Made by a program: the position numbers and the translations under genes | DNA from: an uncultured Acidimicrobiales bacterium | GTDB taxonomy: Bacteria; Actinomycetota; Acidimicrobiia; Acidimicrobiales; SHLQ01 | Assembly: GCA_964610745.1 (NCBI GenBank) | Contig: CAZSYL010000001.1 | Span: forward strand, 43,281 to 107,280 | Direction: 5' to 3' | DNA length: 64,000 nt | The notes under the pieces: generated by a model | The model's database searches: none | Seen by the model: only the letters and a program-made list of their open reading frames with translations | Told to the model about the DNA's origin: nothing | Shown: one piece after another, positions 6,238 through 58,658 of the stretch | Layout of the letters: every line of letters starts with the position of its first letter | How positions within the stretch are numbered: the first letter of the stretch is position 1

Positions 6238-6995
6238 GTTGGATCGTCGAGTTCGTAGAGCGCGGTCAAAAGCCCTTGCGTTACCTGAGACGCCTCAAGG
6301 TCGAACTCGACTCGCCCGTTTCGAAGAGCGATGACACGGTCGAAGTGTTCGACTGCGAGTTGAGCATCGTGCACGCTCACGATCACGGCGCGACCACTTC
6401 CCTGTTCGACAGTCTTCGTGAGCGACGTCATTACCGAGTCCGACCATGCAGGATCGAGCGCACCAACGGGTTCATCGGCGAGGAGTAGATCGGGCGACTG
6501 GAACAAGGTGCGGGCAATCGCCGTCCGCTGCTGCTGTCCACCGGAGAGCCTGTCCGTCCGATCCCAGATCTTGTCGTCGATCCCAAGTTCCGCCAGTACG
6601 TCCGATATCTCTGCGACAGGTCCGGGCCGGAACACGACCTTCGCTGCGTGCAGCGCGGACGTCTGTCCCAGGCGGCCCGCCGCCACGTTGCTCGCCACCC
6701 GCAACGGCCCGACCAGCGAATAGTCCTGAGTTACAAAGCCAATGCGTGAACGAACGTCGCGCATTGACCGCCGGGCGAGTTCACTCGTTGTGACTCCTAG
6801 GACTCGAATTGAACCCGATGTTGGATTGGTGAGCCCGGCAGTGAGGCGAAGCAGTGTTGTTTTGCCCGCTCCTGATGGGCCGATAAGAGCAACCCGTTCT
6901 CCCGCTCCGATCGTCAGCGTGAGATCGTCGACGGCGACGGTGTCGCCGTAGCGGACCGTCACTCCATCAAGCGAGAGAACCGGATCAGTCGTCAA
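6234..6995 (-). CDS. phnC: PhnC-type ABC ATP-binding protein
   Basis: GPSGAGKT, LSGGQQQR, LLADEP; TTG start at 6995 overlaps the end of the binding-protein gene. Confidence 0.85.
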   Translation of the reverse strand: MTTDPVLSLDGVTVRYGDTVAVDDLTLTIGAGERVALIGPSGAGKTTLLRLTAGLTNPTSGSIRVLGVTTSELARRSMRDVRSRIGFVTQDYSLVGPLRVASNVAAGRLGQTSALHAAKVVFRPGPVAEISDVLAELGIDDKIWDRTDRLSGGQQQRTAIARTLFQSPDLLLADEPVGALDPAWSDSVMTSLTKTVEQGSGRAVIVSVHDAQLAVEHFDRVIALRNGRVEFDLEASQVTQGLLTALYELDDPT

Positions 6996-45570: not shown

Positions 45571-46488
45571 ATGACTGCTGCAGCGACCACCACAGAAACG
45601 AAGATCGCCATTCGCGATCTCGAACTGTGGATTTTCCGCGTCGTTTGGCTCATCCTTCCGTTCACGACGTTTCCACTACTGACCCGTGCGCTCGATCAGG
45701 GCGGCCGGGGTCTTGAGCTCGGCGGAACCATCGGCATCTGGGTGATCTGGGCCGCCCTGCTAATCGCCTCGATGGTTCCTCGGACCGAGACCCTCACCGC
45801 AGCCCGCATCATTGCGCCATCGGCCTTTGTCGCTGTTCTCGCCGCGGTCATAAGCCTGCTCGATGAAGGCACCGTCGACCTCGTACTCGTTCTCGCGATC
45901 GTCGGTTCGGCCACAGCTGCACTGCTCGTCTTTCGACCTGCCGTTTCCGACGCATTCGTCGACGGATCGTCCTATGGCGACGAGACACGATTCCTGCTCA
46001 GTACGCCCGGCGCAATCATGGCTGGTCCCATCCAACTCGTCTGGGCAACGATCGCCCTCGGCGCCACTGTGGGCCCCATTCTGTTGCTCGCCGAACGATG
46101 GATCCTGGGCGGCATCCTTCTGGTGGTTGGTTGGCCGCTCGCGTACTTTGCCCTCCCGGTGCTCCATCGTCTCTCATTCCGCTGGCTCGTGCTCGTCCCC
46201 GCGGGCCTCGTCGTGCACGACAAGACAGCACTTCGCGAGCCGCAGCTGTTTCGCAAGGAAAGCATCACGGCCCTGGGCCCAGCGCCCGTCGAGACGACCT
46301 ATGAAGACCTCACGCTGAACGCCCTCGGCCTGGCGCTACGCGCCGAGCTGATCGAACCATCAAAGATCGTCAGAAACGACCGCGGAACCGATGTTGCGCT
46401 CACCGATATCGGCGGTTTCCTCGTCAGCCCGAATCGGCCGGGTAAAGTTATCTCCGAAGCAAAAGAGCGCGGCTTTCGAATCGGGTAA
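45571..46488 (+). CDS. Hypothetical multi-TM membrane protein
   Basis: About 6 TM helices plus a soluble C-terminal domain; ATG 7 nt after TACCCT. Confidence 0.7.
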   Translation: MTAAATTTETKIAIRDLELWIFRVVWLILPFTTFPLLTRALDQGGRGLELGGTIGIWVIWAALLIASMVPRTETLTAARIIAPSAFVAVLAAVISLLDEGTVDLVLVLAIVGSATAALLVFRPAVSDAFVDGSSYGDETRFLLSTPGAIMAGPIQLVWATIALGATVGPILLLAERWILGGILLVVGWPLAYFALPVLHRLSFRWLVLVPAGLVVHDKTALREPQLFRKESITALGPAPVETTYEDLTLNALGLALRAELIEPSKIVRNDRGTDVALTDIGGFLVSPNRPGKVISEAKERGFRIG

Positions 46489-46515: not shown

Positions 46516-47211
46516 CTACGACTCGATCGTGATTTTGGTCCAGGCTCCAACGTTGAACGCTGTTCCGGGGATCAGGCTGAACGGCGTCCCGGCCTTCAGC
46601 GGATCGCTGGACCCGTCGAGATAGGTTCCGTTGGTCGAGTCGAGGTCGGTAATCGTCCAACCGCTGCTGCCTCGGTGCAAACGGCAATGCCGCGAGGACA
46701 CCGCAGGATCGGTTGCCGGAGAGTCGTCGCCGAATACCGACGAAAGGTCGATCTCGGGGAAGATCCCACGGCTTTCGCTGTGCCGACCGATCAGAATGTC
46801 CGTTGGTGGCAGTTCGATGCGCGCCGGCTCGGGCAGCGCATCGGGAGCGTCGACGCCAGTAAAAGCCATCCGCTCGAAGAACTCGAGATCAACCTCGACG
46901 ATCGCGACACCAGCTTGAGCTGCCGAGACGGGCGAGGCCAACCCACCAGAGATCTCCTCGCCCGGGAGCGTGCCGGAGAGAAAGTCGTATCCGCAGTTTT
47001 CGCAGAACACGTCGCCCTCGGTGTGTGATTCAGCACAGTTCGGACACGTCGGACCAACACCGGTGGACGCTGCTATCTCACCGGTCTGCGACGCAGCAGG
47101 CGGTGGTGGTGGAGCTTCGCTGCCGCCATCGATCTGAACGCCACAGATCGAGCAGTAATCGTCCCATTCTGACTCGTGACCCTTTGGGCACGTTACGTCA
47201 GCGACCGCCAT
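46516..47211 (-). CDS. Zinc-ribbon + FHA domain protein
   Basis: CPKGH..YCSICG, CPNC..FCENCG; FHA residues IGR, VSSRH, STNGT. Confidence 0.9.
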   Translation of the reverse strand: MAVADVTCPKGHESEWDDYCSICGVQIDGGSEAPPPPPAASQTGEIAASTGVGPTCPNCAESHTEGDVFCENCGYDFLSGTLPGEEISGGLASPVSAAQAGVAIVEVDLEFFERMAFTGVDAPDALPEPARIELPPTDILIGRHSESRGIFPEIDLSSVFGDDSPATDPAVSSRHCRLHRGSSGWTITDLDSTNGTYLDGSSDPLKAGTPFSLIPGTAFNVGAWTKITIES

Positions 47212-47214
47212 CTT

Positions 47215-48498
47215 CTAGTCCTCTCGCTGCACCCGGACGGTCCGTGTTGAACGAACGTCGAGCGCCATTTCATCGGCCTGTTCGACGGTCCGCTTCAGTC
47301 GAACGGTGCCGGTCTTTGGGTCCTCTACGTCGACGACCTTCTGCAGTAGACGTACGGTTCCTTCATTGCCAGCTTCATGAGCGATCTGAACGGCGCGACC
47401 GAGCTTCATCGTGGCCTCTTGTTCATCTCCAGACTGGCGAGCGGCAAGGCCCGTGGCGATGGCGTCAGCCAGCTCGGCCTGACCGGTGTAGTGCGCGACC
47501 TCACGATTGATGCGGGTCGACAACGCATCGTCGTTGGTCCAGATCGCCCGGACGAGCGCGACCGGTTCAGCTTCGCCATTGATCGCGAGCATCACTCGGG
47601 CAGCGAGGCGCTCATCACCGATCGCTCCGGTCGGGATACGAACGCGCACGTGATAGTCGCGGCTCTCACCGTCAGCCCAGGAACCGAGTGGGTAGTCCTT
47701 CGAAAGCGCGTCGACGGCCACTGCTTTGTCGGTGAGCTCATCGAGGTTCGGCGACACCTGCCGCACGAACTCGATCGTCGAACCCTTTGGTGTCCACAAC
47801 CGAAGCGCCACGTTCGTGACCTGCTTCGCCATCGTCTTCTGGGTCAGTGCCCGGAACTCGGCCTCCATTTCGGAGGGGTGCGCAATGATGTCGGTCGTGC
47901 CGAGCAGTGCATTGGAGATCTTACGTAGCTCATCGGGTTCCCAGTACACCCCAAGACCACGACAGTCGCATTCGAAGAGGCCGACCGACTGGGCAATTGC
48001 CGCGTCGAGCTCCCACGGTTCTTCATGCTCGTTGCGGCCATCGGTTAGGAGGATGACGTGGGCGACCGAGTTGGAGTGGCCCTGAATGAGCGAAGCCGCT
48101 CCTCGAAGCCATGAGCCGATCGCTGTGCCACCATCGGCGTGGATGCGCGATGCGGCGTCGATTGCCTCGGCTCGAGTCTTGGCGTTGGCCTCGATCAGCT
48201 GTCCCGACGGTGGGTAGAGCATCTTGGCTTCGTGGTTCCCGGCAATCACGGCGAACAAAACACCGTCGCTGAGTGTGTCGATAGCGACCTGCGTTGCGGT
48301 TCGGGCCGCCCGAATCTTTGCTCCACCGTTCTCGTTCATCGAGCCGGAGACGTCGACCGCGATCACCTCGACGGTCGGTTCGTGCACCTGGGGACTTGCA
48401 CCGCCTTCAACCGCGGTCACGGTCACGACGGCATCGACCACATCACCGCCCTCTGGCAGGTACTCGTTCTGAAAGACGCTGGCGTCGAACTGGGTCAC
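47215..48498 (-). CDS. vWA domain protein
   Basis: MIDAS DVSGS, GGT, LLTDGRN. Confidence 0.9.
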   Translation of the reverse strand: MTQFDASVFQNEYLPEGGDVVDAVVTVTAVEGGASPQVHEPTVEVIAVDVSGSMNENGGAKIRAARTATQVAIDTLSDGVLFAVIAGNHEAKMLYPPSGQLIEANAKTRAEAIDAASRIHADGGTAIGSWLRGAASLIQGHSNSVAHVILLTDGRNEHEEPWELDAAIAQSVGLFECDCRGLGVYWEPDELRKISNALLGTTDIIAHPSEMEAEFRALTQKTMAKQVTNVALRLWTPKGSTIEFVRQVSPNLDELTDKAVAVDALSKDYPLGSWADGESRDYHVRVRIPTGAIGDERLAARVMLAINGEAEPVALVRAIWTNDDALSTRINREVAHYTGQAELADAIATGLAARQSGDEQEATMKLGRAVQIAHEAGNEGTVRLLQKVVDVEDPKTGTVRLKRTVEQADEMALDVRSTRTVRVQRED

Positions 48499-48632
48499 GT
48501 CACTCTCCTCACATCACCGATCGGAAGCCGGGTGTTGGGCCATCTTAGGTTGAGCCGTTCGACCGGCCCGCGAATTTCGATTCGGCATTCGCTCCGTTCC
48601 GCTGAAGAGTTGGAAGTCGTAGAGCTCGATCC

Positions 48633-48655
48633 TATAGTTAGCCGAGTGGCTAACT
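48633..48655 (+). promoter_or_regulatory. ArsR operator/promoter 1: TATAGTTAGCC-gagt-GGCTAACT
   Basis: 8-bp inverted repeat AGTTAGCC/GGCTAACT overlapping the TATAGT -10 and the GTG start. Confidence 0.8.
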
Positions 48656-48996
48656 TACTTACCGGCAAGCTGAGCGAAGAGGAGTTGGATCGACTGTTCC
48701 GCGCCCTCTCCGACTCGACCCGTCGCTCGATGCTGCGCCGACTAGCGACAAAGCCTATGACCGTCGGAGAGCTTGCCGAACCGTTTGAGATGTCAAAGCC
48801 TTCAATCTCCAAGCACCTCAAGGTACTCGAACGAGCCAACCTCCTCCGGCGAGACATCGACGGAAGGGTGCACCACTGCCACCTGGTCGCTGGCCCGCTC
48901 AACGAAGCAGCCCAGTGGCTACAGCACTACGAGAAGTTCTGGAACGAAAAGCTCGACGCCCTCGATGCGCACCTGACCGGAGGTGACGATGACTGA
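48646..48996 (+). CDS. ArsR/SmtB-family regulator
   Basis: LFRALSDSTRRSML, LAEPFEMSKPSISKHLKVLERANL. Confidence 0.92.
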   Translation: MANLLTGKLSEEELDRLFRALSDSTRRSMLRRLATKPMTVGELAEPFEMSKPSISKHLKVLERANLLRRDIDGRVHHCHLVAGPLNEAAQWLQHYEKFWNEKLDALDAHLTGGDDD

Positions 48997-49450
48997 TCAA
49001 GAGTTGGGAGTCGTGCACTTGGAACGGGTGATCGACTCGCCGGTCGAAAGGGTATTTCACGCCTGGACGACCCCCGGCGAACTCATGCAGTGGTTTGGCC
49101 CCGACGGCTGCGTAGTTGACGCCGCCGAAGCCGACGTCGCTGTCGGAGGTCGCTATTCAATATCGATGACCGTCCCCGGCGGCGAACAGGTACACCACTT
49201 CGGCCAATACCTAGAGGTCGACCCACCGACTCGACTGGTTTTCACCTGGGTTATCTCCAACCAACCATGCGAGGGAAGCCAAGGTAGCGAGGCGAACACC
49301 AAGGTCACCCTCGACCTGGTCAGCGTTGGAACGAGCACGAACTTGTCACTCCTCCACGAACAGCTGCCGAGCGCAGATGCCGTCAAGGGTCACCGCATTG
49401 GCTGGAGCGGCTCGCTGCTCCGCCTATCGAAGCACCTCACTTCCACCTAA
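48989..49450 (+). CDS. SRPBCC (AHSA1-like) protein
   Basis: ERVFHAWTTPGELMQWFGP, RLVFTW, HRIGW; GGAGG SD before ATG at 48989. Confidence 0.88.
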   Translation: MTDQELGVVHLERVIDSPVERVFHAWTTPGELMQWFGPDGCVVDAAEADVAVGGRYSISMTVPGGEQVHHFGQYLEVDPPTRLVFTWVISNQPCEGSQGSEANTKVTLDLVSVGTSTNLSLLHEQLPSADAVKGHRIGWSGSLLRLSKHLTST

Positions 49451-49493
49451 GCGCGGGCGACCACCCCACCAATTACCAATTCCGCTATGACCA

Positions 49494-49515
49494 TATAGTT
49501 AGCCATTCGGCTAAT
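49494..49515 (+). promoter_or_regulatory. ArsR operator/promoter 2: TATAGTTAGCC-attc-GGCTAAT
   Basis: Near-identical to operator 1, 20 nt upstream of the second SRPBCC gene. Confidence 0.8.
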
Positions 49516-49535
49516 GATAAGAAACGGAGACAACA

Positions 49536-49964
49536 ATGTCAGCCATCGCCCACCGGGTCGAAATCGAAGCGCCACCCGAGGGGCTCTTCGATGCCCTCGT
49601 CAATCCAGCACAGCTGACGAGGTGGTGGACACTCGCGCAGCACAGCGAGACAGACCCGACCGTTCTAGAGTTCCTCTTCGGCGAGGACCATGTCGTCACG
49701 ATGAAAGTGGAAGAGGAAGCACGAGGCGAGCGCTTGGTCTGGCAGTGCCTCTCCGGCCCGTGGGCAGACAAGGGCCAATTCGAATTTGACCTCGAGACAA
49801 TCGACCGCGGCACCAATCTTCGCTTCACTCATCATGGCTGGACCGAGATGGACGACTTCTTCCGCCATTGCAATAGCAAATGGGGGTTCTTTCTCGCGGT
49901 CAGCCTGAAAGGCCTACTGGAGCGTGGCGTTGGTCAACCAAGCCCCCATGACCCTGCGATCTAA
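49536..49964 (+). CDS. SRPBCC (AHSA1-like) protein
   Basis: LTRWW, FTHHGW, CNSKWGFFL. Confidence 0.85.
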   Translation: MSAIAHRVEIEAPPEGLFDALVNPAQLTRWWTLAQHSETDPTVLEFLFGEDHVVTMKVEEEARGERLVWQCLSGPWADKGQFEFDLETIDRGTNLRFTHHGWTEMDDFFRHCNSKWGFFLAVSLKGLLERGVGQPSPHDPAI

Positions 49965-49974
49965 GCACCGATGG

Positions 49975-50919
49975 TCAGGACGGCGCGATGACGACCGTGG
50001 TGTTGTCGTGGCCACCCTGTTCGTTCGCAAAAGCTGCGAGGGCCTCGACGAGCTCGAGCGATGTTTCGACTTCGGCGTCGAAACGGCTGATGAGAGCGGC
50101 CAGCTCTTCGGCTTCGGGGACGTACTTCCATAGACCGTCGCTGCAGCTGAGAAGCCGACCGCCCGCGTCGTGCTCGAACGCCTGAATGCTCGGGGTGGTG
50201 TCACCGGCATCACCGCCGAGCCAGCGCGAGATGCTCGGTCCAATTACATCGTCGACGGTGAGTTGGGTCACGACCAACTCCGAACCGGACTCATCGTCGG
50301 GGTCGTCCTGCACCCAATACGCGCGACTATCGCCAAGCCACGCCGTCCAGGAACGCATGAGCGTCGGGTCGCTCGGATCGGGACGAAGGACCGTTGCAAC
50401 AAAGGTCGTTGAAGCCGGACCCTCTCCCCCGGGCTTGAGCTCGACCGACGCCGCCTTCTGTTGCGCAGCCGCGGTTGCCTCGGCCAGCGCTGCCTCAATA
50501 TCGGTAACTCCCGCGTCAAGTGAATCGACGAGCGAATCGCGCGCCGCCTTTGCTGCCAGCAGCGACGCCTGTTCGGGGAAATCGGTTGTCGACACGCCGT
50601 CGCACACCACGACGACGACGGAATCGCCGGATTGCCCGATCGCAAAATGGTCTTCGTTCTGATGATGGCGTTTTCCGCGGCCGGTCACCGCAGCTAGCTC
50701 ACCGAGCACCTCGACGAGGTGATCGCGCTCCGCTGGCTGCTTGCGGCCACACATACTGCAGTAGCCATCAAAGATCTCCGCGTGAAGTGCACCACAGTCG
50801 ACACACGGTGGGCCATCGACCGCACTGTGTTCTCCAGCGAAGTCCGCGCCGCATGCCTCACACCACTTCGCTCCTGGCGCACCCAGCTCACCACACGCTG
50901 GGCAGATCTGGGCGCTCAT
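49975..50919 (-). CDS. Double zinc ribbon + PP2C-family Ser/Thr phosphatase
   Basis: CPAC..WCEAC, CVDC..YCSMC; NED, VCDGVS, WLGDSR, SDGLW, GGHDN. Confidence 0.9.
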   Translation of the reverse strand: MSAQICPACGELGAPGAKWCEACGADFAGEHSAVDGPPCVDCGALHAEIFDGYCSMCGRKQPAERDHLVEVLGELAAVTGRGKRHHQNEDHFAIGQSGDSVVVVVCDGVSTTDFPEQASLLAAKAARDSLVDSLDAGVTDIEAALAEATAAAQQKAASVELKPGGEGPASTTFVATVLRPDPSDPTLMRSWTAWLGDSRAYWVQDDPDDESGSELVVTQLTVDDVIGPSISRWLGGDAGDTTPSIQAFEHDAGGRLLSCSDGLWKYVPEAEELAALISRFDAEVETSLELVEALAAFANEQGGHDNTTVVIAPS

Positions 50920-53549
50920 CGAAATGACGGTACTCGGATAGCGTTTGCCTTATCGACAAACGCGAAACGTTCGTCATCAGTCGCCACAAGTTTGGCCATG
51001 TTTCGGTACCCCTCTTCCAGGCTCGTCCGGAGTCCCACCGCGGTCAGTGGATTGCCGAACACCATCGTCTCGGGATCTTCGTTGAGCACACCGTCGTCGA
51101 TACCAGCAAGAGCCCGCTCGAGCACCTCGTTCGCGAGCTGCATTCGTTCGCGTGCGTCGATGCGTGCCGAATCGATTCGACGTGAAGCATTGGAAAGGTC
51201 AGCGGGAGTAGGTGGCGCGTCCTCCACGTACTGGGTGAGCACCCGCGCCGTCGCGACCTGAGCATCGGTGTAGGTAGCCGAACTCGTCGGCACCGCACCA
51301 TATGCATCGACAGCACCCTGCCGATCGCCGCCTGCGACCCGGCACCGAGCCAGGCCGAACGCGGCAGACACATAGGTTGGATCGACCGCAATGACCTCGG
51401 CATAGAGGTCGGCGGCACGTGGGAAAGCTCCGGCGGATTCGGCAGCCATCGCTGTTGCCAGCTTCGGAGCGAGCTCCCCGGGGACCTCCGTCCACACCGA
51501 CGAGAACCCTTCCGCCGCAGCCTCGGGCTTGCCATCACGCATTGCCTGGACTGCCTTGAACCACGTGACACGCCAATTCCACAAATCGGTGTGTGCCACG
51601 GCGTCGAGGATGTCTCCGGCTGACTGGCCAGCCTCGATCATCTCACGTGCCCGACGGAGTCGCACCTCGACCGAATCGGCCGCCGTGCCTGCAGCCAAGC
51701 CGCTCTCGATCAACTTGAGAGTCGCCTGCGGATCGGTCTCGGGTAGATCGGTGAGGAAAGTCGCGCCCGGGTCTGTCGGGTCAATCTTCGGCACCGGAAG
51801 CGCCCGATAGTCGGCAAAATTGTCGGTGTCGTCCAGCAGCAACAGGCCGGCAAGTCGGTCACCACCAAACAATGAGCTCGTCATTGGCTTGGGCGTCCGT
51901 TCCTGTCGAGCCACGATCTCGCGCAGAACACCCAGCAGCTGCTCGGCCATCTCGCCAGCGGTCTGAAACCGATCGTCTGGGTGAGCAGCCGTTGCTTTGA
52001 GCAGGAACCGGTAAAGCGATTCATATCGATCGAAGAGCGGTTCCTCGGCGGGTGGAGGAATTTCGTATTGATAGGTTCCCGTATGGAAGACGAAGTTCAG
52101 CGACATCACCGCGAGCGTCCGTCCGACGGTAAAGAGATCCGACGCGACCGACGGCCCCATAGAAGCCACCTCTGGCGCTTGGAAGCCCTGGGTTCCAAAG
52201 ATCGCCGCCGAGTCATCGTCGGACTGCATCACTCCGCCGACGTCGATCAGCTTCACGGTGTCACCGACCGCCATCATGTTGGCTGGCTTGAGATCGTTGT
52301 AGACCAGGTTCTGATCATGGAGATAACCAAGCGCTGGCAGCACTCCGAGCATGTAGGCAATCGCTTGAGTGATCGGAAGCGGGTCGGGCTTGCCGCCATT
52401 GTGCTTCCGACGATCTTTCAGTTTCTGATTGAGCGACTCACCACCCACGTACTCCATCACGATGTAGCCAGCGCCAGCCCAGGTCACGAAGTTATAGATG
52501 TTGACGATGCTGCCGTGCTCGATCCGAGCGAGGAACTGTCGCTCCGCCACCGCAGATGCAACGGCGTCGACGTCGTCCTCGTTGAGCAACCCCTTTAGGA
52601 CCACCCACCGGTTCGAGACGGCGGTGTCCTGACCGAGGTAGATCCAGCCCATGCCACCGTGGGCGATGGGACCAAGGATCCGATACTGCCCGCCGACGAG
52701 GTCACCTGCGTTGAGTTGTGGCGTGTTCGTAACGAAGTCGAACGGGGTACGGCAGTTTCCACAAAAGCCCGTGACACGACCGGGTTCGCCTCCGTGACCC
52801 CGCCCCACCGGCTGTCCGCACGCCGAGCAGAAACGCTCGTCCTCAGGCTTCTCGCCGAGCACGCTTCGGATCTTCTCCTCGTCCATGACGGCCTGGCTGG
52901 GGTCCCCCGCAACGGTCGGTGGAACGAGAACAAGTCCTGCTCCGAGTTCCGCTCGAGTCGTGGTAGTTCGTGATGTGCGCGTGCGGGCGCTCGCTGGAGT
53001 TCCCGACGATATGAGCCGACGCGAGGTTTCTGGCGCAACCGGCGCAGCGATCGTTGCATGTGCGGTTGAGCTAGTACCGGGAGCTTCGCCCGAATCGGCC
53101 GCAGCTGGTTGGGCCGCGGGTTGAAGGCCACACGTGTTGCAGTAGCCATCACCAGCAATCTGTCCATCACACCCTGGTGCAGTGCACGCCCCGCCAGCCA
53201 CAGCTGCGACCTTGCCACCATGCTCATGAGCTGGCGCTGGAGATTTGGCGCTTTCGCTCGATTGGAGGCCACACGTATTGCAATAGCCGTCGGCTGCAAT
53301 GTGGCCGTCGCAACCAAGCGCTGTGCATGCCGGACCCGCTGGCTCCGATGCCGGAGCGGGAGCCACTCGTGGCAGCGGAGCGGCACCAAGACCGGTGAAT
53401 CCCGGGGGTGGAGGCTGTCGATGTACACCGCTTGGTGGCGGCGGGGCTGACGCGGACGGCGCGGCAGGGACCCCTGCATAGCCGCAGGTATTGCAGTAGC
53501 CATCGGCGGCAATCGACCCACCGCAGCCGGAACGTGTGCAGGCGCTCAT
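50916..53549 (-). CDS. PknG-like Ser/Thr kinase (Cys4 repeats, rubredoxin-like module, non-RD kinase, TPR C-terminus)
   Basis: GPIAHGGMGWIY, VVLKGL, YNDLKPAN, FCSACG..FCGNC, helical C-terminus ending VDKANAIRVPS. Confidence 0.88.
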   Translation of the reverse strand: MSACTRSGCGGSIAADGYCNTCGYAGVPAAPSASAPPPPSGVHRQPPPPGFTGLGAAPLPRVAPAPASEPAGPACTALGCDGHIAADGYCNTCGLQSSESAKSPAPAHEHGGKVAAVAGGACTAPGCDGQIAGDGYCNTCGLQPAAQPAAADSGEAPGTSSTAHATIAAPVAPETSRRLISSGTPASARTRTSRTTTTRAELGAGLVLVPPTVAGDPSQAVMDEEKIRSVLGEKPEDERFCSACGQPVGRGHGGEPGRVTGFCGNCRTPFDFVTNTPQLNAGDLVGGQYRILGPIAHGGMGWIYLGQDTAVSNRWVVLKGLLNEDDVDAVASAVAERQFLARIEHGSIVNIYNFVTWAGAGYIVMEYVGGESLNQKLKDRRKHNGGKPDPLPITQAIAYMLGVLPALGYLHDQNLVYNDLKPANMMAVGDTVKLIDVGGVMQSDDDSAAIFGTQGFQAPEVASMGPSVASDLFTVGRTLAVMSLNFVFHTGTYQYEIPPPAEEPLFDRYESLYRFLLKATAAHPDDRFQTAGEMAEQLLGVLREIVARQERTPKPMTSSLFGGDRLAGLLLLDDTDNFADYRALPVPKIDPTDPGATFLTDLPETDPQATLKLIESGLAAGTAADSVEVRLRRAREMIEAGQSAGDILDAVAHTDLWNWRVTWFKAVQAMRDGKPEAAAEGFSSVWTEVPGELAPKLATAMAAESAGAFPRAADLYAEVIAVDPTYVSAAFGLARCRVAGGDRQGAVDAYGAVPTSSATYTDAQVATARVLTQYVEDAPPTPADLSNASRRIDSARIDARERMQLANEVLERALAGIDDGVLNEDPETMVFGNPLTAVGLRTSLEEGYRNMAKLVATDDERFAFVDKANAIRVPSFR

Positions 53550-54763
53550 GACCGTCCACCATAGGTGGTCAGCTCCGCCGCGAACCGTTCCATCAGATCC
53601 TTCGCACGACCGAGGTCGGTCGGTGAGATGAACAGCTCATCGTGAGCCTGCTGACCAATGTCGGTGACCTCCTGCGGGAGATCGGAGATCATCGACGCCT
53701 TGACCCGATACGCGCGCAGAAGACCACGCAGGTCAGCACGTTCACTCAAAGGAGCATCGTTGACTCGCAACGCCTTCTCCAGTTGGCTTCGGAGGCGCTC
53801 CGCGGCCGTCATCCATTCATCGACAACAGCGCGCGCCTCGCGCCAGTCGTCGCCGTCTCCAAGCTCGGCGAATCGGCGGGCCCGATGTGCAAGCCCATTA
53901 CGACCATCGATAACCGCGGTCGAGGGCACTCGAATAAGGCCGCCCACCGGTATCACCTTGGCCTCAGCCTTCGAATACGCCGCCGCAGCGCGTGCTCGCA
54001 GAACTCGTAGCTCCGCGATCAGTTCGTCCGCCCGAGCCAGATCCTCACCGAGCGAACCGTGCGCATGAGCAAGCGCTCCCGACGCCCGGGCGGCTGCTGC
54101 GACCAGCTTGTCGAGATCCGGTCCGACATTGCCAGAGAGACTGAGTGGATCATCAGAAACCGATGCGCGGACCGCTGCGAGCCGTTGACTGGCCATCTTG
54201 ACCTCGGGAACACTCACGTCGAGGCGATCGCACAACGCGTTCGCCCGATCGAGCGTCAGCGTGGCAGCTTCGATCCGCGGCATGAGGTCGCTCCAGACCG
54301 CATCGACCTCAGCAACGATGTCACGCACTGGTTCATAGACCGCTCGGAACAGTTCGATCAGTCCATCACAATTGGTCTCATAGGTAGCCGGATCGCCATC
54401 TGCATCGACGAGTCTGCTGTGCACGGTTGCTGGCAGCCCATCGGGCACGGTGGCGAGAGTGATCGAGATCGTGTCGCCGGTCAGCAACTGATGTATCTCT
54501 CCGGCGTGACTGGTGAACATGGTCGTCTCTTCGATCAGCTGATCAACCGTTTCGATCTGATCGCGCAGTCGTCCAAGCCATCCCCACAAGATCGGAGCCG
54601 ACGCCACCGTCTCGTTGGCGCGGTCGCCGGTCACGCCATACATGTCACCAGCGGCGAGCAACCGATAGGTCGCGTGTTCGTCCAACTCGTACAAGCTGTT
54701 CGACCACTGTTCGATCACGGCTTTGTAGTGGGCTCGTCGCGCTTCACTATCGGTGGAAATCAC
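53546..54763 (-). CDS. Conserved-type helical hypothetical protein upstream of the PknG-like kinase
   Basis: Long alpha-helical ORF ending LRGLLRAYRVKA..TDLGRAKDLM; GTG at 54763 lies 6 nt after TACGCT; stop overlaps the kinase start. Confidence 0.7.
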   Translation of the reverse strand: MISTDSEARRAHYKAVIEQWSNSLYELDEHATYRLLAAGDMYGVTGDRANETVASAPILWGWLGRLRDQIETVDQLIEETTMFTSHAGEIHQLLTGDTISITLATVPDGLPATVHSRLVDADGDPATYETNCDGLIELFRAVYEPVRDIVAEVDAVWSDLMPRIEAATLTLDRANALCDRLDVSVPEVKMASQRLAAVRASVSDDPLSLSGNVGPDLDKLVAAAARASGALAHAHGSLGEDLARADELIAELRVLRARAAAAYSKAEAKVIPVGGLIRVPSTAVIDGRNGLAHRARRFAELGDGDDWREARAVVDEWMTAAERLRSQLEKALRVNDAPLSERADLRGLLRAYRVKASMISDLPQEVTDIGQQAHDELFISPTDLGRAKDLMERFAAELTTYGGRS

Positions 54764-54816
54764 ACTCAAAGCGTAGGACACACCCTTGAAGCTTCCGTGT
54801 CTTCTACGATGACGGC
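54764..54816. promoter_or_regulatory. Back-to-back leaderless promoters
   Basis: TACGCT (minus, 54770-54775) and TACGAT (plus, 54805-54810), each exactly 6 nt from a GTG. Confidence 0.7.
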
Positions 54817-56085
54817 GTGACCGAGCAAGCGTCTGTGCCAGCAAAGTCGAGACAGACACCAACAATTCTCTACACGTGGGCGGCGGCTATTGCCCTCATG
54901 CTCGCAGTCGCGGCAGCTCTGAGCTTTCTCGCTGTCCAGACGATGGAATCCACGAGCTCTCGGATCGAGAACAATACGGGTCCAGTTCTCATTTCGACAC
55001 AGGGGCTTGTCGCCAGTCTGGCCGAGGCCGATGCAGCAAACACCGCTGTGTTTCTCTCCGGAATCGACGGCGGTGATGAAGACGTGTCCCAAAGACGCCT
55101 CTACGAATCTGCGATCGCACGAGCTCCTCAGCAGATCGAGGACATCTCGGCTGGCATCGGCGACGACACCGCCACTCACGATGCGCTGAAAGACGTTGCC
55201 CAACAGCTGGTCGAGTATGCCGGGGTCGTCGAACAGGCGCGCTTGTCGAACACGAACGGTCTCGCTGGAGCAGACGACCTGTTGTCAGCGTCGCTCGAAC
55301 TCACCGGCGGGTCGAACGGCATGTTGGTCAATGCCGACGAGGTCACCGAGAGAACCCAACAACAATTCAACGACGATCTGTCCGCAGGACGAATACTCCT
55401 GACCCTCGCACTGGTCTCGCTGGTCCTCAGCCTCGCATTACTTTTCGTTGCTCAGATGCGGCTCCGATACCTGACAAAACGCTTGATCAACTTTGGCCTG
55501 GCCGCTGCGACGCTCGCTGTCGTGTCGCTAACCATCTGGCTACTCCTCGCCGGCTTTGGACGCACGATCGACCTCGACACAGCTCGAGACGAAGGTTTCG
55601 GCGATATTGCACTAAGCGCGCAATTGCAGACTGCAGCGTTCGATTACAAGACCCGCGAGACCGGCGCGATTATTCGCGAACGGGGCGAAGAACTCCCCGA
55701 TCCTGCAGTCCTCGACGAGATCGACGCCACGTTCGCACAGCTCGTGGCCGCTTCTGATTCTGACCGTGAGTCAGCACTCATCACCGAGCTTTCGACCCGC
55801 TGGGAACGGTACCTTCAGATCAGTGGCGTCATCTCCGCCCGAGTGGCCCAGGGAAACTTTGACGAGGCTCGTGACGAGGTTGGCGGCGAAGGCAACCAGA
55901 CGTTCAACGGCTTTAACACGACGCTCGAAGCACTCAACCTCACCAACCAGGAACAGTTCAACGCATCGGTCGCAAGCGCAGCCGCCCGTCTCCGGTGGTT
56001 GAGTTTCGCGACCATCTTGCTGCCGCTATTCGCTGCAGCATTCGCATGGCTTGGATACCGACCCCGAATCAACGAGTACTTTTAG
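54817..56085 (+). CDS. GlnX-like membrane protein (TM + duplicated extracytoplasmic helical bundles)
   Basis: TM, then GPVLISTQGLVASLAEADAANTAVFLSG..RRLYESAIA, central TM hairpin, second bundle, final TM; architecture and motif recall mycobacterial GlnX. Confidence 0.6.
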   Translation: MTEQASVPAKSRQTPTILYTWAAAIALMLAVAAALSFLAVQTMESTSSRIENNTGPVLISTQGLVASLAEADAANTAVFLSGIDGGDEDVSQRRLYESAIARAPQQIEDISAGIGDDTATHDALKDVAQQLVEYAGVVEQARLSNTNGLAGADDLLSASLELTGGSNGMLVNADEVTERTQQQFNDDLSAGRILLTLALVSLVLSLALLFVAQMRLRYLTKRLINFGLAAATLAVVSLTIWLLLAGFGRTIDLDTARDEGFGDIALSAQLQTAAFDYKTRETGAIIRERGEELPDPAVLDEIDATFAQLVAASDSDRESALITELSTRWERYLQISGVISARVAQGNFDEARDEVGGEGNQTFNGFNTTLEALNLTNQEQFNASVASAAARLRWLSFATILLPLFAAAFAWLGYRPRINEYF

Positions 56086-56091
56086 GACGCC

Positions 56092-57288
56092 GTGGCCTCT
56101 TTCCTTGGTTCTTCGCCGCTCGATCGTCCAACGAGACGCACCATCCGTTCTCGTCGCGCCTTCCTGTCCAGGGTTGGCGTGCTCGGAGCTGGGGCGTTCC
56201 TGACCAGCTGCGGCACTGATGGGATAGCGATCGAACGACAGCCGACGCTCGATCAGGCACTCAACGTGATCAACTGGGCGGAGTACATTCCGCCCGACGG
56301 AACCGATTCCTTCCTTAGCCAGACACGTCTGGAAAGCGTGAACTACCGCGAAGACTACGTCGACAATGTCTCGGGCTTCTCCGACATCATCGAACCGCAG
56401 CTCAGCGGCGGAGGCGTTCCGGACTTCGATCTGATCGTACCGACCCAATGGTTGGCAGGTCGCATGATCGAGAACGGTTGGGTCGAGGCCCTCCCCCTCG
56501 AAGTCATCCCCAATCACGCGAACCTCGACCCTCGCTTCATGACCAGCGACTTCGACCGAGGCTCTCGGTTTCAGATGCCATGGCAGGGCGGCATGACCGG
56601 CATTTCGTACAACCCGGCGGCCACGGGCGGTCCCATCACATCGGTGACAGACCTGTTCGACCAATCCAACCCCGCGCTGCGGGGCCAGGTCGGACTTATC
56701 GGCGAAATGCGCGAAGCGGTTGGCCTAGCGATGCTCGCGAACGGCGACGACCCGGCCCGCCCGAATCCGCAAACTGCTAACGCCGGTCTAGAACTGCTCA
56801 TCGAGCTCGCCGAGGCTGGCCACTTCCAAAGCGTCGTGTTCGACGACTTCGTCGGCGAGCTGACCGCAGGGCGACTCGCCGCCACCATGGCGTGGTCTGG
56901 GCAGGCGGCCGCGTTACAACTCGAGTCACCCCAGTTTGAGTTCGTCATCCCAGATGAAGGCGCGATCTCCTGGTTCGACACGATGGTCATTCCCAAGAAC
57001 GCGATCAACTTCGGTGGAGCAGCTGCCTGGATGAACTGGGCCTACGACCCAGATGTCGCCGCTCAGATCTCGGCATTCAATCTGTATGTCTGTCCGGTTC
57101 TCGGCACGCAGGACTCACTCCGTGCTCTCGGAGGTTTTGAGGCCACACTCGCGGACAACCCGCTGATCTTCCCCGACACCGAGACTCGAAACCGCCTCTT
57201 CACCTGGGGTGCGCTCGACCTCGATGCCGAGCTCGCAATCGAAGAACGCTTCGACGCACTCACCGAACAGATCGGCTTTGCCAATTAA
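56092..57288 (+). CDS. PotD/PotF-type polyamine-binding lipoprotein, Tat-exported, orphan
   Basis: SRRAFL..LTSC; LNVINWAEYI, IPNHANLDP, PWQGGMTGISYN, WSG, EGAISWFDTMVIP. Confidence 0.85.
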   Translation: MASFLGSSPLDRPTRRTIRSRRAFLSRVGVLGAGAFLTSCGTDGIAIERQPTLDQALNVINWAEYIPPDGTDSFLSQTRLESVNYREDYVDNVSGFSDIIEPQLSGGGVPDFDLIVPTQWLAGRMIENGWVEALPLEVIPNHANLDPRFMTSDFDRGSRFQMPWQGGMTGISYNPAATGGPITSVTDLFDQSNPALRGQVGLIGEMREAVGLAMLANGDDPARPNPQTANAGLELLIELAEAGHFQSVVFDDFVGELTAGRLAATMAWSGQAAALQLESPQFEFVIPDEGAISWFDTMVIPKNAINFGGAAAWMNWAYDPDVAAQISAFNLYVCPVLGTQDSLRALGGFEATLADNPLIFPDTETRNRLFTWGALDLDAELAIEERFDALTEQIGFAN

Positions 57289-57308
57289 CTTCAGGATTCG
57301 AGGATGCT

Positions 57309-58658
57309 GTGCATGACTTTGATGAGGAGACCGAAGCGCTTGCGCAGAAGATCTTCGATTACGCCCGAGCCCGCACGCGACTGGACCCAATACCGCTCAA
57401 CTTTCCCAAGACCGAAGCTGAACTCGACGAGCTCTGCGGCGAGATGATCACCAGTGAGGGCATCGGTGGCGAGAGGGCGCTCGACTTGTTTGCCAAGGTT
57501 TTGGAACCAGCGTCCCTTTCGGTCGACTACACAAAGTATCTCTCGTTCGTCCCCGCCGCTCCGACCGAATCAGCGGTCTTATTTGATCTAGTGGTCGGCG
57601 CAGTATCGATCTACGGCGGTTCGTGGTTAGAGGGAGCGGGGGCGATCTATGCCGAGAACACAGCCCTCGACTGGCTACGCCAGATCGCCGGAATGCCCGA
57701 TGGCTCAGGCGGGGTGTTCGTGTCGGGTGGCACGATCGGCAATCTCTCGGCACTCGTCGCGGCCCGCCATGCAGCGGTGCTGCGCCTCGGCGAGAACCGT
57801 CCCAACCGATTCGCGATCCTTGCCTCTCGGGAATCCCACTCGTCGATCGAGGCCGCTGCACTGGTGATGGACTGCGAGGTAGTCCTGTGCGATACCGACG
57901 AGCACCGTCGCATGACCGGTGACGCCGTAGCCGCTGCTCTGGACGAACACGGAGACAGGATCTGTGCGGTCGCGGCGACATCTGGCACGACCAACCTTGG
58001 CATCATTGATGACCTCCGATCCATCGGCGAGGTGTGCCGAGAGCGAGGCGTGTGGATGCACGTCGATGGGGCCTATGGCGGAGCCGGGCTCGCGAGCTCA
58101 CGAACGAGGGGACTCTTCGACGGCCTGGGGCTCGCGGACTCATTCATCGTCGATCCGCACAAGTGGCTGTTCGCCCCGTTCGACTGCTGCGCACTCCTCT
58201 ACCGTGACCCCGGTCGGGCGGTCGAAGCTCATGCTCAGCACGCCGGGTATCTCGCGTTCCTCGACAGCCATGGTGACAAGAATCCATCTGACTACGCCAT
58301 CCATCTGACCCGCCGTGTGCGCGGCCTCCCGTTCTGGTTCAGCCTCGCCACCCATGGCACACAGGCCTACGAAGCAGCTGTCGATGTCACCCTCGACCTC
58401 ACCGACGCAGCTGCCGAGATGATCCGCGAGGCAGAGCACCTCGAGCTCGCCCACGATCCGAACTTGTCGGTCGTGGCGTTCCGTCGTATCGGCTGGGATG
58501 CAGACCAGTATCAGGCCTGGAGCGAGGAGGCTATGAACAGCGGGCTCGCCTTCGTCACTCCGTCGAGGCTCGACGGCGAGCCGATCTACCGGTTCGCTTT
58601 CGTCAATCCGCGCACCACTACCGACGAGATCGCGGAAATTATCGAGGCGCTCCGCTGA
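57309..58658 (+). CDS. Group II PLP-dependent amino-acid decarboxylase
   Basis: GVFVSGGTIGNL, SHSSI, WMHVDGAYGG, DSFIVDPHKW (PLP lysine). Confidence 0.9.
   Translation: MHDFDEETEALAQKIFDYARARTRLDPIPLNFPKTEAELDELCGEMITSEGIGGERALDLFAKVLEPASLSVDYTKYLSFVPAAPTESAVLFDLVVGAVSIYGGSWLEGAGAIYAENTALDWLRQIAGMPDGSGGVFVSGGTIGNLSALVAARHAAVLRLGENRPNRFAILASRESHSSIEAAALVMDCEVVLCDTDEHRRMTGDAVAAALDEHGDRICAVAATSGTTNLGIIDDLRSIGEVCRERGVWMHVDGAYGGAGLASSRTRGLFDGLGLADSFIVDPHKWLFAPFDCCALLYRDPGRAVEAHAQHAGYLAFLDSHGDKNPSDYAIHLTRRVRGLPFWFSLATHGTQAYEAAVDVTLDLTDAAAEMIREAEHLELAHDPNLSVVAFRRIGWDADQYQAWSEEAMNSGLAFVTPSRLDGEPIYRFAFVNPRTTTDEIAEIIEALR

Follow-up and report, generated by a model that had tools for sequence, protein, structure and literature searches.

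A PotD/PotF-family lipoprotein linked to GlnX and PknG in Acidimicrobiales: a candidate amine-sensing variant of the GlnH–GlnX–PknG pathway

Introduction

Signalling through PknG in Mycobacterium and Corynebacterium is described by the GlnH–GlnX–PknG model (PMC6069109, PMC9769921, PMC8546545), and in a 2021 review GlnH/GlnX/PknG was the only characterised Ser/Thr kinase system stimulated by a binding protein (SBP) (PMC8050422). The published GlnX combines four transmembrane (TM) helices with two ectodomains of ~150 aa, each a four-helix bundle; its cytoplasmic loop is short and its C-terminal tail very short (PMC9769921). Two further systems are of interest for comparison. In the NspS–MbaA systems of Vibrio cholerae and Sinorhizobium meliloti, a PotD-family protein serves polyamine sensing, not transport (PMC5646818, PMC8079147, PMC9993111). 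In Sulfolobus acidocaldarius, ArnA, a zinc-ribbon and FHA protein, is paired with the vWA protein ArnB, whose C-terminal helical domain carries Ser/Thr sites (PMC6509490, PMC12852372; structures 5A8I and 8S05).

The locus analysed here lies in a window of 64 kb, the whole stretch of DNA that was read, from an uncultured marine Acidimicrobiales bacterium. As in the GlnH–GlnX–PknG–GarA/OdhI system, the gene for an SBP lipoprotein adjoins that of a GlnX with four TM helices, a four-helix bundle in each of its two ectodomains, and a conserved cytoplasmic loop and C-terminal R-x-x-E-Y tail; PknG is soluble and combines rubredoxin, kinase, and TPR domains, and a GarA/OdhI-like FHA protein is encoded elsewhere. 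However, the SBP is of the PotD/PotF type (SBP_bac_8) with a polyamine-type pocket, whereas GlnH is an SBP_bac_3 protein whose pocket takes Asp/Glu; the GlnX comes from a different subfamily; the unit also includes a PLP decarboxylase; and a helical protein, a PP2C phosphatase, a vWA protein, and a zinc-ribbon-FHA protein join the kinase, none of which is carried by any of the seven Mycobacterium-like glnX–glnH–pknG loci examined. The orphan SBP_bac_8 protein of the PotD family encoded beside a membrane signalling protein recalls NspS–MbaA, but the partner there is a GGDEF-EAL enzyme with c-di-GMP as output, while GlnX lacks any enzymatic domain, and PknG is presumed to deliver the output as Ser/Thr phosphorylation. 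The FHA–vWA pair resembles ArnA–ArnB in architecture, including, by analogy, its control by a Hanks-type kinase and a phosphatase; nevertheless, similarity at the sequence level is limited to the FHA partner (E ~1e-10), and the archaeal output is archaellum expression. Our preferred reading, which the evidence favours by a modest margin, is a variant of the SBP–GlnX–PknG pathway with a PotD/PotF-family lipoprotein instead of GlnH, sensing a polyamine-like amine outside the cell; ligand, substrate, contacts, and phosphorylation are all inferred. In the literature searched, neither a published description of the PotD-type variant nor a paper on the wider cassette (helical protein, PP2C, vWA, FHA) was found.

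Organization of the locus

The features of the locus are as follows.

46516-47211, (-) strand: protein with zinc ribbons and an FHA domain (Pfam FHA 43 bits, plus zinc ribbons)
47215-48498, (-) strand: vWA protein with a VWA_3_C helical tail (Pfam VWA_3, VWA_2, VWA_3_C)
~48640-49964, (+) strand: insert with an ArsR-type regulator and two AHSA1/SRPBCC genes (Pfam AHSA1 91 and 40 bits)
49975-50919, (-) strand: PP2C Ser/Thr phosphatase with an N-terminal double zinc ribbon (Pfam PP2C_2; NCBIfam Stp1-type 68 bits)
50916-53549, (-) strand: PknG-family Ser/Thr kinase (Pfam PknG_rubred 63, Pkinase 91, PknG_TPR 229 bits)
53546-54763, (-) strand: hyp405, a conserved, all-helical cytoplasmic protein of 405 aa without a Pfam match
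54764-54816, no strand: divergent intergenic region between the two arms, 53 nt (sequence read directly)
54817-56085, (+) strand: GlnX-family transmembrane transducer of the PotD-linked subfamily (NF058618 216 bits; PF28326)
56092-57288, (+) strand: PotD/PotF-family lipoprotein (Pfam SBP_bac_8 and SBP_bac_6)
57309-58658, (+) strand: group II PLP-dependent amino-acid decarboxylase (Pfam Pyridoxal_deC 195 bits)

ORF calls and domain searches recovered all eight genes of the original prediction, with its gene order and coordinates and with gaps of exactly 53 nt between the arms, 6 nt between GlnX and the PotD-like gene, and 20 nt between the latter and the decarboxylase. The leftward arm held only in part: its genes were right, but the rightward ArsR and two AHSA1 genes that break it between PP2C and vWA had been missed. 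This insert is missing from that position in all related loci and is considered lineage-specific and outside the conserved module. The claim that the window contains no PotA/B/C genes held for the permeases, as none of the PotB/C type was found in the 64 kb; the sole ABC ATPase match is an unrelated gene (~6300-6983), ~40 kb away. Overlaps of 4 nt join hyp405 to PknG and PknG to PP2C (the PP2C start lies over the kinase stop codon), and translational coupling of hyp405 to the kinase is inferred from sequence alone. A consensus scan found no sigma-70-like promoter in the 53-nt divergent region.

The membrane transducer is a GlnX homologue

Homology and architecture together identify the membrane protein as a genuine homologue of GlnX. 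It matches NCBIfam NF058618 (transduce_GlnX) over model positions 1-412 of 413 (216.4 bits, E 7e-64), which is below the subfamily cut-off of 250 bits, and the precomputed Pfam entry PF28326 (Sensor_actino) is listed for an identical protein. Alignment by hhalign to a GlnX alignment that takes in bona fide mycobacterial GlnX gave a probability of 100% (E 7e-66). Four TM helices (22-40, 193-211, 226-244, and 392-410) separate ectodomains of 152 and 147 aa, a cytoplasmic loop of 14 aa, and a C-terminal tail of 12 aa. The AF2 model (pLDDT 90) is all-helical with two four-helix bundles, one of which can be superposed on the sensor domain of HK9 (3VA9, TM-score 0.80), and both topology and model agree with the published GlnX model. 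In the domain search its matches are only of the 4HB_MCP_1/CHASE3 type, without an enzymatic domain. Conservation extends to the cytoplasmic loop and to the RINEYF tail at the C-terminus.

The PotD-linked GlnX is ~25% identical to the GlnH-linked one and represents a distinct subfamily, found only with a PotD-like binding protein. When the two subfamilies are compared, the loop and tail are best conserved (~40% identity), and the ectodomains share only 17-26%. This comparison makes it likely, by inference, that the loop and tail face the kinase and the diverged ectodomains face the binding protein.

The lipoprotein has a polyamine-type pocket

The lipoprotein matches PotD, PotF, and SpuD/E-type structures in the PDB with E values of 1e-23 to 1e-29. 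In its pocket, 26 orthologues show conservation of W62, E64, Y65, T118, W120, E205, E208, W268, W294, D296, and Y332, with Leu at the E64 position in three of them. With E. coli PotD/PotF as the reference, 10 of the 14 ligand-contact positions have the PotD or PotF residue and three others differ conservatively (S to T, Y to W, D to E); Gly occupies the position equivalent to PotD Q327. It is inferred, without binding data, that the protein keeps the acidic and aromatic pocket of polyamine binders and not one for amino acids. The equivalog cut-offs are far from met (PotD 95.5 versus 582 bits; PotF 89.9 versus 636 bits), and therefore the ligand could be another cation. Tat export is inferred from the conserved RRxFL motif and lipobox Cys. 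The only Pot-type transporter of the genome is a complete PotABCD operon on a separate contig (C69), whose own PotD is 27% identical to the lipoprotein of the locus.

Conservation of two sensor modules on one cassette

Of 26 genome loci found through GlnX, 25 have the PotD-like gene directly after GlnX, and in the remaining one the contig ends too early. The decarboxylase comes next in each of the 23 loci with sequence long enough. Kinase-arm genes adjoin in 22; three loci are uninformative and one has the arm ~18 kb away. Such an arrangement is far beyond chance. Across ~30 loci spanning 34-68% GlnX identity, GlnX, the PotD-like gene, and the decarboxylase are contiguous wherever sequence suffices, with one exception, in which a mobile-element-like insert lies ahead of the decarboxylase. 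The linkage is kept in Acidimicrobiia, in a Nitriliruptoria MAG, and in MAGs of other Actinomycetota; in distant relatives, a single co-directional array contains all eight genes. No permease gene was found beside the PotD-like gene in the ~30 related loci, and their neighbourhoods contain no conserved gene beyond the eight. The sensor triad stands apart from the kinase arm in two genomes: the one with the ~18-kb separation, and a second with no kinase-arm gene within the 5.4 kb read upstream.

The same cytoplasmic cassette (hyp405–PknG–PP2C–vWA–FHA) occurs with GlnX–GlnH (SBP_bac_3) and without a decarboxylase at 13 loci of other Acidimicrobiia and four of large-genome actinomycetes. These loci share the five cytoplasmic genes in the same order and a GlnX-family transducer; however, their SBP is of the GlnH type and their sensor genes lie 5', whereas the PotD-type sensor genes lie 3' or in a divergent arm. 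The decarboxylase occurs strictly with the PotD-type sensor and is missing from all GlnH-type cassettes. Two alternative sensor modules exist on one cytoplasmic cassette. The original prediction proposed that the receptor had been swapped for a polyamine or amine binder, which is supported, but not as an in-place swap, since the GlnX subfamily differs too and the co-directional form has the sensor pair at the opposite end of the cassette.

It had also named three outcomes that would count against it besides an unrelated membrane protein. The first, that the lipoprotein binds Glu/Asp, is not indicated by the PotD/PotF-type pocket, albeit without binding data. The second, that it serves a PotABC transporter elsewhere, gained no support, yet shared use of the distant PotABC, which has its own PotD, remains possible. 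The third, that the linkage is not conserved in relatives, is contradicted by the survey of GlnX neighbours for PotD versus GlnH, in which the GlnH type appeared in separate cassettes. The GlnX assignment itself, which had rested on architecture and a short motif, held on hhalign, topology, and AF2.

The kinase and its candidate targets

The kinase is shown by homology to be a full-length PknG homologue with all three domains: M. tuberculosis PknG (2PZI) aligns with its residues 202-874 (E 2e-130), through rubredoxin, kinase, and TPR. Three zinc ribbons precede the rubredoxin-like domain at the N-terminus, and the sequence contains two CxxC pairs and the lysine of VVLKG. It is the sole gene with PknG_TPR in the genome. 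In the kinase tree, the PotD-linked kinases were not recovered as a single clade. A hyp405 homologue lies upstream of PknG in PotD-type and GlnH-type cassettes alike; hyp405 has no family in Pfam, NCBIfam, or PADLOC, and its AF2 model (pLDDT 91, long helical bundles) has no PDB match at E < 0.001.

In the FHA protein, the signature residues G142/R143, S172, H175, and N194 are invariant in 12 orthologues, and the family profile matches ArnA nearly over its full length (5A8I, E 2.8e-10; 8S05_C, E 1.7e-10). The vWA protein matches 4FX5 over its full length (395 bits), with an intact MIDAS motif (D49, S51, S53, T125, and D153 invariant) and an invariant C-terminal R416-S417-T418-x-T420-V421. No ArnB-type chain is among its matches at E <= 0.01; the domain order is comparable to that of ArnB. 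Elsewhere in the genome, a GarA/OdhI-like protein (151.5 bits, cut-off 200) with garA-type neighbours and an E-T-I-S motif is a candidate PknG substrate, as inferred from sequence and neighbours without phosphorylation data.

The decarboxylase

The decarboxylase contains the DPHK motif with the Schiff-base lysine, and its nearest structures are DOPA decarboxylase 7XIN, DfoJ 5O5C, and Trp decarboxylase 4OBU. Its top NCBIfam match is the L-2,4-diaminobutyrate (DABA) decarboxylase; this identity was not supported, as the score is 198 bits versus a cut-off of 900 and the genome has no diaminobutyrate source above cut-off. No DABA transaminase (Dat family) above cut-off was found in the genome, the best match being a GABA-transaminase-like gene. 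Three group II decarboxylase paralogues in the genome all have the same unspecific matches. Because the genome carries an agmatinase–PotABCD cluster and the GABA-transaminase-like gene, polyamines are plausible nitrogen sources, with breakdown using 2-oxoglutarate.

Proposed mechanism

It is proposed that the Tat-exported lipoprotein binds a polycationic amine, a diamine or triamine as inferred from the pocket, in the extracellular space and would dock onto the two four-helix-bundle ectodomains of its co-evolved GlnX subfamily. By analogy with the published model, the GlnX cytoplasmic loop and R-I-N-E-Y tail would relay the signal to the TPR domain of the single PknG, which may phosphorylate FHA-read targets. 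The first would be the GarA/OdhI-like protein, tuning the 2-oxoglutarate/glutamate node; the second, the co-encoded vWA protein, on which the zinc-ribbon-FHA protein would recognise the S-T-x-T motif in the manner of ArnA/ArnB. Resetting the switch would fall to the PP2C phosphatase. The presumably co-transcribed decarboxylase may tie the sensor to amine metabolism, either making an amine of the same class inside or balancing synthesis against external supply.

Alternative explanations

The strongest alternative is an autocrine or quorum circuit, in which a diamine formed by the decarboxylase from a basic amino acid exits the cell and is sensed by the PotD-like protein and GlnX, so that PknG reports the population's own amine and not a nutrient. 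We regard this as possible. It is supported by the exclusive presence of the decarboxylase with the PotD-type sensor, by its nearest named relatives, among them group II enzymes that form diamines (DABA decarboxylase RhbB and the desferrioxamine-biosynthesis decarboxylase 5O5C), by the acidic and aromatic pocket, as for di- and triamines, and by the precedent of V. cholerae, where norspermidine is sensed via the PotD-like NspS (PMC5646818, PMC8079147). However, no exporter gene is conserved in the module, the substrate of the decarboxylase cannot be assigned, with no DABA transaminase above cut-off, and the three genomic paralogues share the same unspecific matches. The earlier suggestion that the decarboxylase makes the sensed amine is contradicted by nothing and stays a possibility, without substrate data.

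A bolder reading, tentative as a joint claim, is that GlnX is a general plug-in adaptor connecting SBP classes to PknG via its loop and an R-x-x-E-Y-COOH tail docking in the TPR domain, that in this lineage the decarboxylase diamine is released and sensed back, and that the output is an ArnA/ArnB-like FHA–vWA pair. If true, this would be a Ser/Thr-kinase-based amine quorum or homeostasis circuit.

That the lipoprotein is mainly an extra SBP for a PotABC importer elsewhere, its adjacency to GlnX having no role in signalling, seems unlikely. ABC importers can take several binding proteins, the genome has a complete PotABC transporter on another contig, and the triad lies away from the kinase in two genomes. 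On the other hand, the PotD-like gene is always right after GlnX and never beside permeases in the ~30 loci, the distant transporter has its own, only distantly similar PotD, and this GlnX subfamily is confined to loci with a PotD-like protein.

Triads of kinase, PP2C, and vWA with zinc ribbons resemble the TerY-P arrangement, and the kinase domain matches PADLOC kinase models, but a TerY-P-like stress or anti-phage switch, with the membrane pair as an anchor or a trigger on envelope damage, is very improbable, as those matches are generic and restricted to the kinase domain, the kinase is a full-length PknG homologue, and the cassette lies on the chromosome in a single copy, with synteny kept over deep lineages, in contrast to the patchiness of defence islands. 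PADLOC gave no match for vWA, FHA, hyp405, GlnX, or the SBP, and weak, non-system-specific ones for PP2C (31 bits) and the decarboxylase (~22 bits).

Implications for PknG signalling

Returning to the pathway-variant reading, the relay appears modular: one kinase cassette is found with either of two unrelated classes of SBP, and each class is paired with a GlnX subfamily of its own. This suggests that different outside sensors can feed into the PknG pathway. The PknG field has yet to establish how GlnX transmits the signal, a problem that the subfamily comparison renders testable. Polyamines are an important form of marine dissolved organic nitrogen; marine Acidimicrobiia may sense them and link them to the 2-oxoglutarate/glutamate node. 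The three-gene glnX–glnH–pknG operon of Mycobacterium and Corynebacterium looks like a reduced form of the wider cassette.

Organization of the locus

The locus consists of eight conserved genes arranged in two divergent arms. The gene of a 405-aa helical protein without family match is referred to as hyp405, and the name also covers its homologues located beside PknG in other loci.

Genes of the locus and of its insert (window positions)
46516-47211, minus strand: protein with zinc ribbon and FHA domain
47215-48498, minus strand: vWA protein with a VWA_3_C tail
about 48640-49964, plus strand: ArsR-type gene and two AHSA1/SRPBCC genes, lying between the PP2C and vWA genes in opposite orientation
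49975-50919, minus strand: PP2C phosphatase with zinc ribbons
50916-53549, minus strand: PknG-type kinase with three N-terminal zinc ribbons (PknG_rubred 63 bits, Pkinase 91 bits, PknG_TPR 229 bits)
53546-54763, minus strand: hyp405, 405 aa, no family match
54817-56085, plus strand: GlnX-like membrane protein
56092-57288, plus strand: PotD/PotF-like binding protein
57309-58658, plus strand: group II PLP decarboxylase

The gaps of 53, 6 and 20 nt given in the original prediction, the first between the arms and the others within the rightward one, proved exact on re-reading. In the leftward arm, the hyp405, PknG and PP2C genes overlap by 4 nt at each junction. The ArsR/AHSA1 insert, a detail that the original prediction had not mentioned, is present only in the genome containing the window and in none of the relatives; judging from the gene layout, it must uncouple transcription of the vWA–FHA pair from that of the kinase genes. 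No PotB/C-type permease was found in the window, and the only PotA-like match there, to an ABC ATPase about 40 kb off, is unrelated. The sequence of the locus was found in marine metagenome DNA runs only, with no coverage in three metatranscriptomes of the same study, and the promoter/terminator scan of the locus was uninformative, the organism being high-GC. A 305-aa membrane protein without family match, encoded at 45571-46488 on the plus strand, is convergent with the FHA gene; its position is kept in the window's clade (L004, L007-L011, L024, L025) and not in the distant loci.

Conservation of the PotD-type linkage

The linkage was surveyed by a pattern scan with one genome per species, which yielded 26 loci in Acidimicrobiia, one Nitriliruptoria MAG and other Actinomycetota MAGs. 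The GlnX gene is followed by the PotD-like gene in 25 of the 26, the last contig ending too early, and the decarboxylase comes next in all loci long enough to show it (23/23). Kinase-arm genes adjoin in 22 of the 26 loci; of the remainder, three are truncated and one has its kinase on the same contig at a distance of about 18 kb. In the more distant relatives (GlnX 34-40% identical) the eight genes are co-directional, in the order hyp405–PknG–PP2C–vWA–FHA–GlnX–PotD-like–decarboxylase, while the two arms are inverted relative to each other in the window's clade. The all-against-all comparison of 12 loci revealed no further conserved gene nearby. An independent look-up of decarboxylase homologues (65-68% identical) again placed them within Sensor_actino–SBP_bac_8–decarboxylase triads.

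Two loci deserve a comment. In L048 (G239:C149, 3400-6300), two inserted ORFs separate the decarboxylase from the PotD-like gene, and one of them resembles, by eye only, a mobile-element gene of the HNH-endonuclease/DUF222 type. The whole module is also present in L007 (JBLIMK010000044.1), labelled Verrucomicrobiales, with 52-85% identity to Acidimicrobiia and a position inside them in the kinase tree; this contig is likely mis-binned.

The GlnX family was detected in 22 of 401 sampled genomes of the phylum and in 18 of 401 sampled Acidimicrobiia genomes. Among 16 fetched Acidimicrobiia loci, 13 are of the GlnH type (GlnX with GlnH, an SBP_bac_3 protein) with the full cassette, one is of the PotD type and two are too short to classify; the second PotD-type carrier among the 18 genomes is the one containing the window. 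The arrangement GlnX–SBP_bac_3 protein–hyp405 homologue–PknG–PP2C–vWA(–FHA) was found in four genomes of 7-10 Mb, probably Streptomyces-like, and seven Mycobacterium-like loci consist of GlnX–GlnH–PknG only. Neither a decarboxylase nor a PotD-like gene is present in any GlnH-type locus. Since GlnH-type and PotD-type loci both carry the cassette, they can be described as one cytoplasmic cassette with two alternative sensor modules. Besides a full GlnH-type cassette, one Acidimicrobiia genome (G641; L082, L091) contains another GlnX–GlnH pair, whose GlnX is split into two adjacent matches (C1:403578-403868 and 403897-404874), possibly by a frameshift or as a pseudogene.

Assignment of the membrane protein to a separate GlnX subfamily

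The NCBIfam GlnX subfamily model matches the membrane protein over model positions 1-412 of 413 (E 7e-64) with 216 bits, below the curated cut-off of 250, and an identical protein carries the precomputed Pfam assignment PF28326 (Sensor_actino). For a profile comparison, 27 relatives of the window GlnX were set against 13 GlnH-linked GlnX proteins, the first member of the latter set reaching 867 bits, above the cut-off of 780, with the equivalog model of mycobacterial GlnX. The two profiles were aligned by hhalign over 405 columns with a probability of 100% and E 7e-66. By hydropathy, the protein has four TM helices, two ectodomains (152 and 147 residues), a cytoplasmic loop of 14 residues and a tail of 12, in agreement with the experimentally supported topology of Corynebacterium glutamicum GlnX (PMC9769921). 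In the AlphaFold2 model (pLDDT 90, pTM 0.79) the protein consists of helices only and forms two four-helix bundles, one of which superposes on 3VA9, a solved four-helix-bundle sensor domain, with a TM-score of 0.80. The fold search with the whole model gave no significant global match (TTYH proteins, E about 4e-3, TM-score 0.2); the sole match was the local one to the four-helix-bundle sensor. On the profile, hhalign, topology and model evidence together, the protein is identified as a GlnX homologue belonging to a separate subfamily. It is single-copy in its genome.

When the two GlnX subfamilies are compared, identity is highest in the cytoplasmic loop (39.5%) and in the C-terminal tail (40%), which has the common motif G-x-x-x-R-[IL]-x-E-Y-x-COOH, and lowest in the second ectodomain (16.6%). 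Such conservation inside and divergence outside is what would be expected if the inner segments face the same kinase and the outer ones different binding proteins. All GlnX homologues, PotD- or GlnH-linked, end with R-[IL]-x-E-Y-[RFWH]-COOH a few residues past TM4 (56050-56085 in the window). It is plausible, as an inference from sequence, that this free C-terminal peptide is a ligand of the PknG TPR domain; the peptide is not discussed in the literature that we consulted on GlnX and PknG.

The binding protein and its predicted ligand

The lipoprotein belongs to the families SBP_bac_8 and SBP_bac_6, and the solved structures closest to it, with E from 1e-23 to 1e-29, are without exception those of polyamine-binding proteins, namely PotD, PotF and polyamine transport proteins of Pseudomonas. 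The residues taken as the ligand contacts of PotD and PotF agree with the E. coli sequences of PotD (13/13) and PotF (11/11). In the alignment, the pocket positions W62, E64, Y65, T118, W120, E205, E208, W268, W294, D296 and Y332 are kept in the window lipoprotein and 26 orthologues, except that at position 64 many orthologues have Asp and three have Leu. An aromatic box with four acidic residues would suit a di- or triamine and not Asp/Glu, although this is inferred from sequence alone, without binding data. In nearly all orthologues a lipobox cysteine comes after a twin-arginine motif (RRxFL); C. glutamicum GlnH is also a lipoprotein (PMC9769921).

One Pot-type transporter is encoded in the same genome, on contig C69, where it adjoins agmatinase and lies near a GABA-transaminase-like gene. 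It has its own PotD, 27% identical to the window lipoprotein. The region C69:2186-10740 (L049) comprises the GABA-transaminase-like gene (492 bits, below the cut-off of 507), a C45-family acyltransferase/hydrolase, GNAT, agmatinase and PotA-B-C-D, and it is likely a unit of polyamine/agmatine uptake and breakdown.

The decarboxylase is predicted to be active, as it has a Pyridoxal_deC domain together with the Schiff-base lysine motif. Its nearest named relatives are the diaminobutyrate decarboxylase model of NCBIfam (198 bits, cut-off 900) and, in the PDB, DOPA decarboxylase (7XIN), a desferrioxamine-biosynthesis decarboxylase (5O5C) and tryptophan decarboxylase (4OBU), none of them at orthologue level. 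No diaminobutyrate transaminase above cut-off was found in the genome, and its other group II paralogues gave equally unspecific matches, leaving the substrate unresolved by any of these four approaches. Conversion of a basic amino acid to a diamine would fit the lipoprotein pocket, but this is an inference without substrate data.

The kinase and its putative partners

Residues 202-874 of the kinase match Mycobacterium tuberculosis PknG (2PZI) with E 2e-130, and the genome (94.6% complete) has one copy of a PknG_TPR gene. A kinase phylogeny was run to ask whether the PotD-linked type has one origin; the tree, which includes one mis-extracted sequence (L038), is poorly resolved, and it is compatible with a single origin without demonstrating it.

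A GarA/OdhI-like FHA protein is encoded on another contig of this genome (C12:34924-35286, minus strand; L029:1480-1980) and, with 151.5 bits, falls short of the cut-off of 200. It has E-T-I-S where GarA/OdhI has the phospho-acceptor motif E-T-T-S, and an additional N-terminal zinc ribbon. Its gene neighbours are a MerR-type gene and another that, judged by eye, resembles the Rv1829/DUF151 bifunctional-nuclease family. These neighbours are reminiscent of the mycobacterial garA region.

The vWA protein matches the structural-genomics entry 4FX5 with 395 bits; its MIDAS motif is intact and its C-terminal R-S-T-x-T-V-x-V is invariant. The FHA protein keeps all residues of the phosphothreonine-binding signature, and its profile matches Sulfolobus ArnA over nearly the full length (E about 1e-10). 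In Sulfolobus, ArnA uses its FHA domain to bind the vWA protein ArnB at the latter's phosphorylated C-terminus (PMC6509490). The ArnA/ArnB analogy is only half supported at the sequence level, since the vWA sequence profile retrieved no ArnB-type chain.

The AlphaFold2 model of hyp405 shows long helical bundles (pLDDT 91), without a significant match in the PDB (best EzrA, E 0.29). In PotD-type and GlnH-type cassettes alike (L002-L027, L037-L040, L081-L085), the gene upstream of PknG and translationally coupled to it encodes a conserved protein of this kind, with about 400 residues; no homologue was found in the Mycobacterium-like loci. The reading of the locus as a defence system found no support in PADLOC, which gave generic kinase-domain matches, two weak, non-specific ones and nothing specific.

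Proposed mechanism

It is proposed, as the most likely mechanism, that the lipoprotein would bind an extracellular polycationic amine and that the signal would be relayed via this GlnX subfamily to PknG, the putative targets of which are the GarA-like protein and the vWA/FHA pair; PP2C would reverse the phosphorylation. When polyamines are broken down via GABA transaminase, 2-oxoglutarate is consumed and glutamate is formed. Polyamine availability might be coupled to the GarA-controlled 2-oxoglutarate node, which would parallel the logic of mycobacterial Asp/Glu sensing. The decarboxylase may make the sensed amine, or else it may balance internal synthesis against external supply; the closed loop of amine production and sensing suggested in the original prediction is regarded as possible but not as likely. 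What that prediction had observed, a PknG-type locus with a polyamine-type binding protein in place of GlnH, was confirmed, and its interpretation is supported as far as sequence analysis reaches, the ligand, the substrate and the protein contacts being inferred. From sequence alone, this conserved and intact locus appears to be a new form of an established signalling system.

In the literature searched, no paper was found on a polyamine-type binding protein together with GlnX or PknG. According to a 2021 review (PMC8050422), no Ser/Thr kinase system stimulated by an SBP has been characterised apart from GlnH/GlnX/PknG; the polyamine-sensing SBP system listed there is NspS–MbaA, with c-di-GMP output.

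Zinc ribbons of the CxxC...CxxC type open the kinase (three), the phosphatase (two) and the FHA protein (two), and the GarA-like protein has one; a common docking role for them is possible.
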